The notes beneath the pieces were generated by a model. The model saw only the letters and a list, made by a program, of their open reading frames with translations, had not been told where the DNA came from and did not search any database. A DNA stretch of 35,960 nt from IMG/VR virus record IMGVR_UViG_2541047842_000004. One strand, written 5' to 3'. The DNA comes from a virus (lineage: Duplodnaviria > Heunggongvirae > Uroviricota > Caudoviricetes). A program made the translations under genes and the position numbers. Below, one piece after another: positions 5,565 to 7,275 of this stretch (the first letter of the stretch is position 1; every line of letters begins with the position of its first letter).

Positions 5565-6104
5565 ATGAACAACTCATGGTGGCAGGAACTAATGCATTTT
5601 TTCCTGCAAGGAATGACACTTAAACAGTTGATTCATATGCTAATCATCCTGATCATATTGATTATTGTTATGCCTGTAAGCGTAAAAGAATGGATAAACC
5701 TGCATAATCCAGAAATCCTTCCTCATTACTGGATGTATTACATCCTGTTGTTTTGCGTTAGCTATGTGCTTAACGGCGTTGTTAATTCCGCTTATCACGC
5801 TGTGACTGTAAGAATTGAGATATTCGCTGCTCAGAAGCGCAAATCTAAAGAAGAGAAATACGTGCAAGATTTGTTTGATTCGTTAACTCTTGGAGAAAGA
5901 GCGTATTTGGCATTCGCTGTAGCCGCTAATAACCAGCTAAAGACAGAAAAGGGAAGCCCTGAAGCAATCTCATTGCTCGAAAAAGGGCTTCTTATTCGGG
6001 TACCTTCTGCTACTGGATATCCTGAAATCGACCGTTTTGTTATCCCGGAACGCTATAGAAATGAGTGCTACATTAGGGAAGGTGCGAACAAGTCCCTGAT
6101 ATGA
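5565..6104 (+). CDS. sieB: Superinfection exclusion protein B, 3' end disrupted by IS5 (native C-terminal ~24 codons replaced by 9 IS-encoded codons)
   Basis: Product [32 protein letters not shown]... matches lambda SieB with hydrophobic N-terminal segments; the reading frame runs into the IS5 left inverted repeat at 6077 and ends ...[13 protein letters not shown]; the native 3' end continues in frame after the IS (7276-7345). Confidence 0.8.
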
Positions 6105-7271
6105 GATCATGTTTGTCATCTGGAGCCATGGAACAGGGTTCATCATGAGTCATCAACTTACCTTCGCCGACAGTGAATTCAGCAGTAAGCGCCGTCAGAC
6201 CAGAAAAGAGATTTTCTTGTCCCGCATGGAGCAGATTCTGCCATGGCAAAACATGGTGGAAGTCATCGAGCCGTTTTACCCCAAGGCTGGTAATGGCCGG
6301 CGACCTTATCCGCTGGAAACCATGCTACGCATTCACTGCATGCAGCATTGGTACAACCTGAGCGATGGCGCGATGGAAGATGCTCTGTACGAAATCGCCT
6401 CCATGCGTCTGTTTGCCCGGTTATCCCTGGATAGCGCCTTGCCTGACCGCACCACCATCATGAATTTCCGCCACCTGCTGGAGCAGCATCAACTGGCCCG
6501 CCAATTGTTCAAGACCATCAATCGCTGGCTGGCCGAAGCAGGCGTCATGATGACTCAAGGCACCTTGGTCGATGCCACCATCATTGAGGCACCCAGCTCG
6601 ACCAAGAACAAAGAGCAGCAACGCGATCCGGAGATGCATCAGACCAAGAAAGGCAATCAGTGGCACTTTGGCATGAAGGCCCACATTGGTGTCGATGCCA
6701 AGAGTGGCCTGACCCACAGCCTGGTCACCACCGCGGCCAACGAGCATGACCTCAATCAGCTGGGTAATCTGCTGCATGGAGAGGAGCAATTTGTCTCAGC
6801 CGATGCCGGCTACCAAGGGGCGCCACAGCGCGAGGAGCTGGCCGAGGTGGATGTGGACTGGCTGATCGCCGAGCGCCCCGGCAAGGTAAGAACCTTGAAA
6901 CAGCATCCACGCAAGAACAAAACGGCCATCAACATCGAATCCATGAAAGCCAGCATCCGGGCCAAGGTGGAGCACCCATTTCGCATCATCAAGCGACAGT
7001 TCGGCTTCGTGAAAGCCAGATACAAGGGGTTGCTGAAAAACGATAACCAACTGGCGATGTTATTCACGCTGGCCAACCTGTTTCGGGCGGACCAAATGAT
7101 ACGTCAGTGGGAGAGATCTCACTAAAAACTGGGGATAACGCCTTAAATGGCGAAGAAACGGTCTAAATAGGCTGATTCAAGGCATTTACGGGAGAAAAAA
7201 TCGGCTCAAACATGAAGAAATGAAATGACTGAGTCAGCCGAGAAGAATTTCCCCGCTTATTCGCACCTTCC
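6077..7271 (+). mobile_element. IS5 insertion sequence (1195 bp) with 4-bp target-site duplication TTAG
   Basis: Terminal inverted repeats ggaaggtgcgaacaag (6077-6092) and cttattcgcaccttcc (7256-7271); TTAG at 6073-6076 and 7272-7275; internal InsH transposase ORF; length 1195 bp matches IS5. Confidence 0.95.
6109..7125 (+). CDS. insH: IS5 transposase InsH
   Basis: 338-aa ORF containing [83 protein letters not shown]..., which matches E. coli IS5 InsH. Confidence 0.95.
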
Positions 7272-7275
7272 TTAG

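Follow-up and report, generated by a model that had tools for sequence, protein, structure and literature searches.

We find that the sieB gene of a lambda-like prophage has been interrupted by a complete IS5 element in the sequence analysed here (the window, 35,960 nucleotides). The best explanation, to which we give a probability of about 0.78, is a recent and real transposition of a resident IS5 into a TTAG in sieB of a sitABCD/iss-type, icd-integrated lambda-like prophage of E. coli HVH 215, whereby exclusion was probably weakened, the genes of the pL operon would be little affected and the prophage was probably left inducible. The event is real but ordinary: the element is known, the kind of event is known and the site is new.

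Direct reading of the window places an IS5 of exactly 1195 bp on the plus strand at 6077–7271, with its left and right inverted repeats at 6077–6092 and 7256–7271. It is flanked by the two copies of a TTAG target-site duplication (6073–6076 and 7272–7275, neither assigned to a strand). The 16-bp terminal repeats, GGAAGGTGCGAACAAG and GGAAGGTGCGAATAAG, are imperfect and agree at 15 of 16 positions; the junctions read TGCTACA TTAG / GGAAGGTGCGAACAAG at the left end and CTTATTCGCACCTTCC / TTAG GTTTGCTGG at the right. These readings bear out the preliminary description, made from the sequence before this analysis, which had reported a complete 1195-bp IS5 with intact inverted repeats and a TTAG duplication. 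TTAG has been recorded as an IS5 target and conforms to the Py-T-A-Pu (YTAR) consensus (PMC5493358). Many complete E. coli genomes contain copies, annotated as 'IS5-like element IS5 family transposase', that match the element at 100% identity; with the IS5 of phage P1, whose record states that its copy is the same as the original lambda KH100 element, the identity is 99.7%. The transposase gene, ins5A (6145–7125, plus strand), is co-oriented with sieB and encodes 326 residues from the annotated start, corresponding to the 981-nt coding sequence (WP_000019400.1) of the identical copy in S1-ISR-02-A; the open frame reaches further up, to an ATG at 6109, giving 338 residues. The encoded DDE transposase is intact, with Pfam DDE_Tnp_1 (E = 5e-35) and DUF772 (E = 4e-21) both above their cut-offs. 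Rfam returned nothing within or beside IS5.

Joining positions 5565–6076 to 7276–7345 yields an in-frame SieB of 193 residues. As it stands in the window, the sieB frame (5565–6104, plus strand; open reading frame list and junction reading) encodes 179 residues, the first 171 native and the last eight from the left end of IS5 (EGANKSLI), with a stop at 6102–6104, 5 nt before the first ATG of the long transposase frame. The displaced 3' end, comprising codons 172–193 and the stop, lies at 7276–7345 (plus strand). The restored frame confirms the earlier claims that sieB is interrupted and that its displaced 3' end is intact. The truncated variant proposed there also stands, with a correction to its counts: nine IS-encoded residues and a break 24 codons before the stop become eight residues and 22 codons plus the stop, the discrepancy of about one codon arising because codon 171, which spans the junction (AG|G), still encodes Arg.

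The gene lies between N and ea10/ral and converges on N, a layout shared with lambda, ST104 and VT1-Sakai, and it is antisense to the pL transcript. Its product matches PHROG 1301 (E = 1e-110), and the Pfam SieB domain (PF14163, E = 3e-25, residues 24–164) is found whether the protein is intact or truncated. A full-length SieB with its conserved C-terminal tail is no longer encoded, residues 172–193 having given way to the eight IS-coded residues. SieB of ST104, a P22-like Salmonella phage, is 84% identical overall and conserves the lost tail (FAGKKDSLMDELIAQD...); the tail's EL[IV]A motif is still visible in lambda SieB (27% identical), where the tail is conserved in part. Because this conserved tail is lost, the function of SieB and Esc is probably impaired, and exclusion of superinfecting phages would be weakened or abolished. 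A passage of PMC3224144 describes Esc as an in-frame internal product of sieB that inhibits SieB; being such a product, it would lose the tail too. SieB might keep its function, since the truncation falls after the whole Pfam domain.

In the leftward unit, the order on the minus strand is N, IS5, ea10, cIII, kil, gam, bet, exo, xis and int; here the comparison of open reading frames and annotation agrees with the gene order, and with the placement of IS5 between N and ea10 to int, that had been read from the sequence earlier. A pL-like sigma-70 promoter (7870–7898, minus strand; TTGATA, 17-nt spacer, CATTAT) was recognized by consensus match only. A nutL-like site (7789–7823, minus strand), with boxA GGCTCTTTAAC (7823–7813) and boxB GCGCTGACAAAGCGC (7803–7789), was assigned from its consensus and its resemblance to annotated relatives, and the same boxA context is annotated as a putative nutL in VT1-Sakai. 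The boxB sequence folds into a 5-bp stem with a GACAA loop, and we take it to be of the P22 type. The antiterminator gene N (7362–7670, minus strand; annotated in sister genomes) is intact and encodes 102 residues with a P22-type arginine-rich motif, GNAKTRRHERRRKLAIER (Pfam N_peptide, E = 5e-41). The pL-like promoter, the nutL-like site and N all lie upstream of IS5, which follows the N stop codon by 91 nt in the pL transcript. The distal pL genes past IS5, from ea10 to int with small open reading frames between exo and xis (1–5304, minus strand), are 100% identical to those of the free phage Lambda_2E9.

Two intrinsic terminators, each a hairpin with a U-tract, were found on the minus strand beyond IS5: a phage-native one in the sieB–ea10 interval (5331–5352; −12.9 kcal/mol, z = −4.3) and a second in the ea10–cIII interval (4893–4912; −9.9 kcal/mol, z = −4.2). 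The sole terminator-like site inside IS5 on this strand, at 7239–7227, is weak (−4.3 kcal/mol). At the start of cIII, Rfam places the lambda cIII thermoregulator RNA element (4818–4876, minus strand; 88.5 bits, E = 2e-20), the only Rfam family in the window.

The prophage is lambda-like, adjoins icd and is of the sitABCD/iss (Jouyvirus) type. Aligned with Lambda_2E9, the window is identical over stretches of 6077 and 13230 bp and departs from it at two positions in the next 15460 bp, namely one substitution and one single-base indel. Phages so named come from work in which plaque-forming temperate coliphages were isolated from strains and viromes of the infant gut; sie, blc, bor and sitABCD are described there as common morons (PMC6969025). 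By this comparison the insertion is recent, because the prophage, IS5 aside, is essentially identical to a plaque-forming phage, and the window bears no other decay. With IS5 the prophage would measure ~47.9 kb, within the 46.7–48.1 kb range of its sequenced relatives, and viable phages with IS5 are on record (P1, 434 and lambda KH100).

Two minor features of the prophage were noted in passing. The indel, at 33848 of the window and 13346 of Lambda_2E9, leaves an M-like minor tail gene shortened (297 nt) in the phage record, the full 109-aa frame being kept in the window and in S1-ISR-02-A; the single-base difference is probably a sequencing error in the Lambda_2E9 record. A DUF1364 (ninH-like) fragment upstream of rusA (14154–14243) is annotated as a pseudogene lacking its N terminus in every sister prophage examined, and appears to be a fixed remnant in the phage lineage.

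Comparison with related strains, which the preliminary description had proposed as a check, revealed the empty site. Reconstructed with a single TTAG and 700 bp on each side (1400 bp), it has 100% identical counterparts in 11 phage records of 46.7–48.1 kb, among them Lambda_2E9, 1H12 and Lambda_ev087, and in numerous complete E. coli genomes. In the complete genomes, the annotation at the site is a 'super-infection exclusion protein B' adjoining a 'transcriptional antitermination N peptide'. Given these identical empty sites, the arrangement in the window is a true insertion and not a product of chance. The filled-site junctions of the window were found in none of the 5,426 complete E. coli genomes searched. 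The exact 179-aa SieB is encoded in NCBI assembly GCA_000459335.1 of E. coli HVH 215 (4-3008371), as EQU87072.1 / WP_021545112.1.

We surveyed the 19.3-kb int-to-ylcI region, with IS5 removed, against complete genomes and took the best 60 records, all ~100% identical to the query. Seventeen of these 60 closest copies are longer than the query and carry an IS in the region. Including the window, 15 distinct sites were counted: int, DUF1317, sieB (two), a 299-aa gene (two), ren, ninE, rusA, Q, the Q–blc interval, blc and ybgA (three). IS3-family elements occupy int, DUF1317, ren, rusA and ybgA; IS2-sized elements Q and two ybgA sites, one of them common to three genomes; IS200C the Q–blc interval; IS1 ninE, blc and the 299-aa gene; and IS5 the 299-aa gene and sieB. 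Insertion of IS elements is thus an everyday event in this lineage of prophages, and nothing demonstrable sets sieB apart. The gene hit most often is ybgA, a moron between Q and the lysis genes (16076–17035 in the window, 14877–15836 in its IS5-free equivalent), with three distinct sites; the three genomes sharing one of them come from Mexico, South Korea and Australia.

The second interrupted sieB belongs to S1-ISR-02-A, whose prophage is near-identical to that of the window (one mismatch over ~26 kb). An identical IS5 lies there at another sieB TTAG (nt 197), in the opposite orientation, at 20386–21580 of its own sequence, equivalent to 5761 of the window. We considered whether this was the same filled site and rejected it as such, the insertion being a different one. 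The same IS5 sequence at another site in a sister prophage shows, at the level of sequence, only that this variant is mobile. In this second allele, an outward frame at the left end of IS5 runs in frame into SieB at residue 66; the resulting N-terminally truncated product is annotated in another genome as a 143-aa protein (WP_250189611.1) and bears a loose resemblance to Esc, itself a natural SieB inhibitor that lacks the N terminus.

A further variant, P0017 (177 aa; five contigs, Logan/ENA), was examined as a possible third IS at the TTAG occupied in the window. This was rejected, as its tail is the C terminus of RusA: the protein consists of SieB residues 1–170 and the last 16 residues of RusA. 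It implies a deletion of 7278 bp removing N, the 299-aa gene, cI, cro, cII, O, P, ren and the nin genes, with the left breakpoint within the TTAG of IS5 (6073–6076) joined through TTA microhomology to 14552 in rusA (14240–14602).

The 299-aa gene (8113–9012, minus strand) occupies the place of rexAB, with cI on one side and pL on the other. It matches PHROG 4506 only, a family without an assigned function, and gave no Pfam and no PADLOC match. It is interrupted independently in sister prophages, by IS5 in AF46 and by IS1 in EECO1006, and it is a candidate for an exclusion or defence gene expressed in the lysogen.

Other explanations of the arrangement concern its reality and its consequences. 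A repeat misplaced while a draft genome was scaffolded could have created an IS5 here as an assembly artefact, and the source is indeed a 2013 draft scaffold with junctions that no complete genome of the collection contains. Against this, the element ends are perfect, the 4-bp target duplication is canonical and the frame is restored on removal. In addition, the left junction recurs on an independent 620-bp ENA metagenome contig, which the same look-up lists in two samples; its presence both in GCA_000459335.1 and in this contig argues against an artefact, the outcome that the preliminary description had named as able to overturn its reading, and we find an artefact scarcely credible. A different objection grants the insertion and holds that IS5 terminates pL transcription, leaving cIII, the Red functions, xis and int under-expressed, so that excision fails and the prophage is locked in, or domesticated. 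IS5 does lie between N and all the distal pL genes, with its one weak terminator-like hairpin on the minus strand, and the pL transcript crosses an extra 1.2 kb antisense to ins5A that could expose Rho-loading sites; furthermore, IS elements inactivate prophages elsewhere, and sister copies carry them in Q and int. However, two strong native terminators stand before cIII, and the distal genes therefore already need N-modified, terminator-resistant transcription; as pL, nutL and an intact N are upstream, transcripts entering IS5 after induction should come from such N-modified polymerase. Even without IS5, the transcript carries ~580 nt of untranslated RNA antisense to sieB here, and the prophage has suffered no secondary decay. 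Polarity is no issue in a repressed lysogen, where pL is silent. N-mediated read-through is not always complete, and IS5 may cause some quantitative drop in pL-gene expression. N is needed for delayed-early expression and builds a processive antitermination complex (PMC7819879). According to the passages of PMC4693257 and PMC2147009 that refer to Adhya, Gottesman & de Crombrugghe (1974), polarity is classically suppressed by N antitermination, N having been defined in part through this effect, and N-dependent transcription from pL is described as reading far beyond the prophage into gal (PMC2147009). From the anatomy and this established knowledge, IS5 should have little polar effect on the pL genes after induction. 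The expectation in the preliminary description of polarity on cIII, Red and xis is accordingly unsupported and at odds with the anatomy, stronger native terminators than that of IS5 being overridden in any case; its suggestion of domestication fares no better, given the near-identity to a plaque-forming phage and a length within the range of relatives. We regard a prophage locked in by IS5 as improbable.

It could also be argued that sieB, alone or together with the 299-aa gene flanking the immunity region, attracts IS insertions preferentially or that selection favours its inactivation, which would make the insertion adaptive. The independent IS5 at nt 197 in S1-ISR-02-A speaks for this, as does WP_250189611.1, which shows the nt-197 junction in a different sieB allele. 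Another SieB variant ends in an apparent IS1 terminus after codon 167, and many 'partial' SieB proteins stop at residues 165–170, at contig ends; the tail after codon 167 is what the IS1 end, as we presume its sequence to be, would encode. That IS1 sequence matches a multi-copy element in 4999 genomes, and a chimeric sieB–IS1 query found its junction in no complete genome searched. The 299-aa gene has likewise been hit by IS5 and by IS1, and all three IS5 insertions seen in this prophage fall in sieB or the 299-aa gene. The protein-cluster evidence that suggested a hot spot is, however, biased, as truncated variants of similar length cluster together and are drawn from hundreds of thousands of assemblies. 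In the unbiased survey of 60 genomes, no significant enrichment was seen: with the event of the window set aside, sieB, with 3% of the length, has 1 of 14 sites (P = 0.35), and sieB and the 299-aa gene together have 3 of 14 (P = 0.087), while ybgA is hit at least as often, with its three sites. AT-richness was considered as a cause of the insertion sites and rejected, the sites of the survey showing no GC bias (P = 0.21). We consider a preferred or selected target very unlikely. A more speculative proposal, for which we hold out little hope, is that IS elements preferentially knock out sieB and the 299-aa gene of a widespread ExPEC prophage, exclusion or abortive-infection genes being costly to the host, and that the IS5 of the window, through its nmpC-like co-orientation, is a hyperactive donor able to travel inside a viable phage.

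We thus return to a recent transposition of a resident IS5 with limited effects. By its usual 4-bp staggered cut, the DDE transposase duplicated TTAG; the last 22 residues of SieB and Esc have been replaced by eight IS-coded ones, and nothing else in the prophage has changed. Without the conserved C-terminal tail, SieB probably excludes superinfecting phages less well or not at all. After induction, the downstream pL genes should be expressed almost as usual, since terminators are ignored by N-modified polymerase and both N and nutL are upstream of the element. The prophage is probably still inducible and could package IS5, and a crippling of the phage by the element is unlikely. The insertion is one instance of a common process: IS elements are scattered over many sites across this prophage lineage.

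The practical effects are small: the lysogen's SieB-type exclusion is probably weakened, and the phage may ferry IS5 between hosts. Two corrections follow for the reading of similar loci. An IS that lies within the pL operon past N and nutL is not to be assumed polar, and a prophage bearing an IS is not to be called domesticated on position alone. As a by-product, the survey indicates that in roughly one in four of the nearest complete-genome copies of this common sitABCD/iss prophage the early region harbours an IS, at many different sites; some of the hits fall in truly essential functions (Q, int) and others in morons. In the literature searched, we found no description of a sieB::IS5 insertion.

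Compared with known systems, the element itself is the same as reference IS5 (IS5 family, IS5 group; first found as the lambda KH100 insertion in cI), with which it shares the length of 1195 bp, the 16-bp imperfect repeats, the 4-bp YTAR duplication and the Ins5A DDE transposase; the insertion site alone differs. The IS5 copies in nmpC (DLP12) and lomR (Rac) of E. coli K-12 and in the porin gene of phage 434 likewise interrupt non-essential lambdoid morons. In K-12 nmpC, IS5 is co-oriented with its target, the nmpC promoter drives ins5A and the copy is the main transposition donor (PMC11677980). The IS5 of the window is also co-oriented with its target gene, one expressed in lysogens, and by analogy the sieB promoter might drive ins5A. 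Unlike those copies, it lies in sieB, in the early-left region and antisense to pL.

The interrupted gene resembles SieB/Esc of P22 and lambda in its Pfam SieB domain, its place in the N–ea10 interval and its convergence on N as in lambda (sieB 34482–35036, plus strand; N 35037–35438, minus strand; nutL 35518–35534), and differs in that the allele of the window, known here from sequence, lacks the last 22 residues. A final comparison is with the 'grounding' of lambdoid prophages by IS elements, as in the prophage pool of E. coli O157 Sakai, where nu1 of prophage Sp4 is disrupted by an IS (PMC2669165). There, as here, IS elements pile up in resident prophages, and sister copies of the present one are hit in int, Q, ren, rusA and ninE, among other genes. 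The IS5 of the window differs from such grounding in having struck an accessory gene rather than a function in excision, replication, late transcription or packaging.
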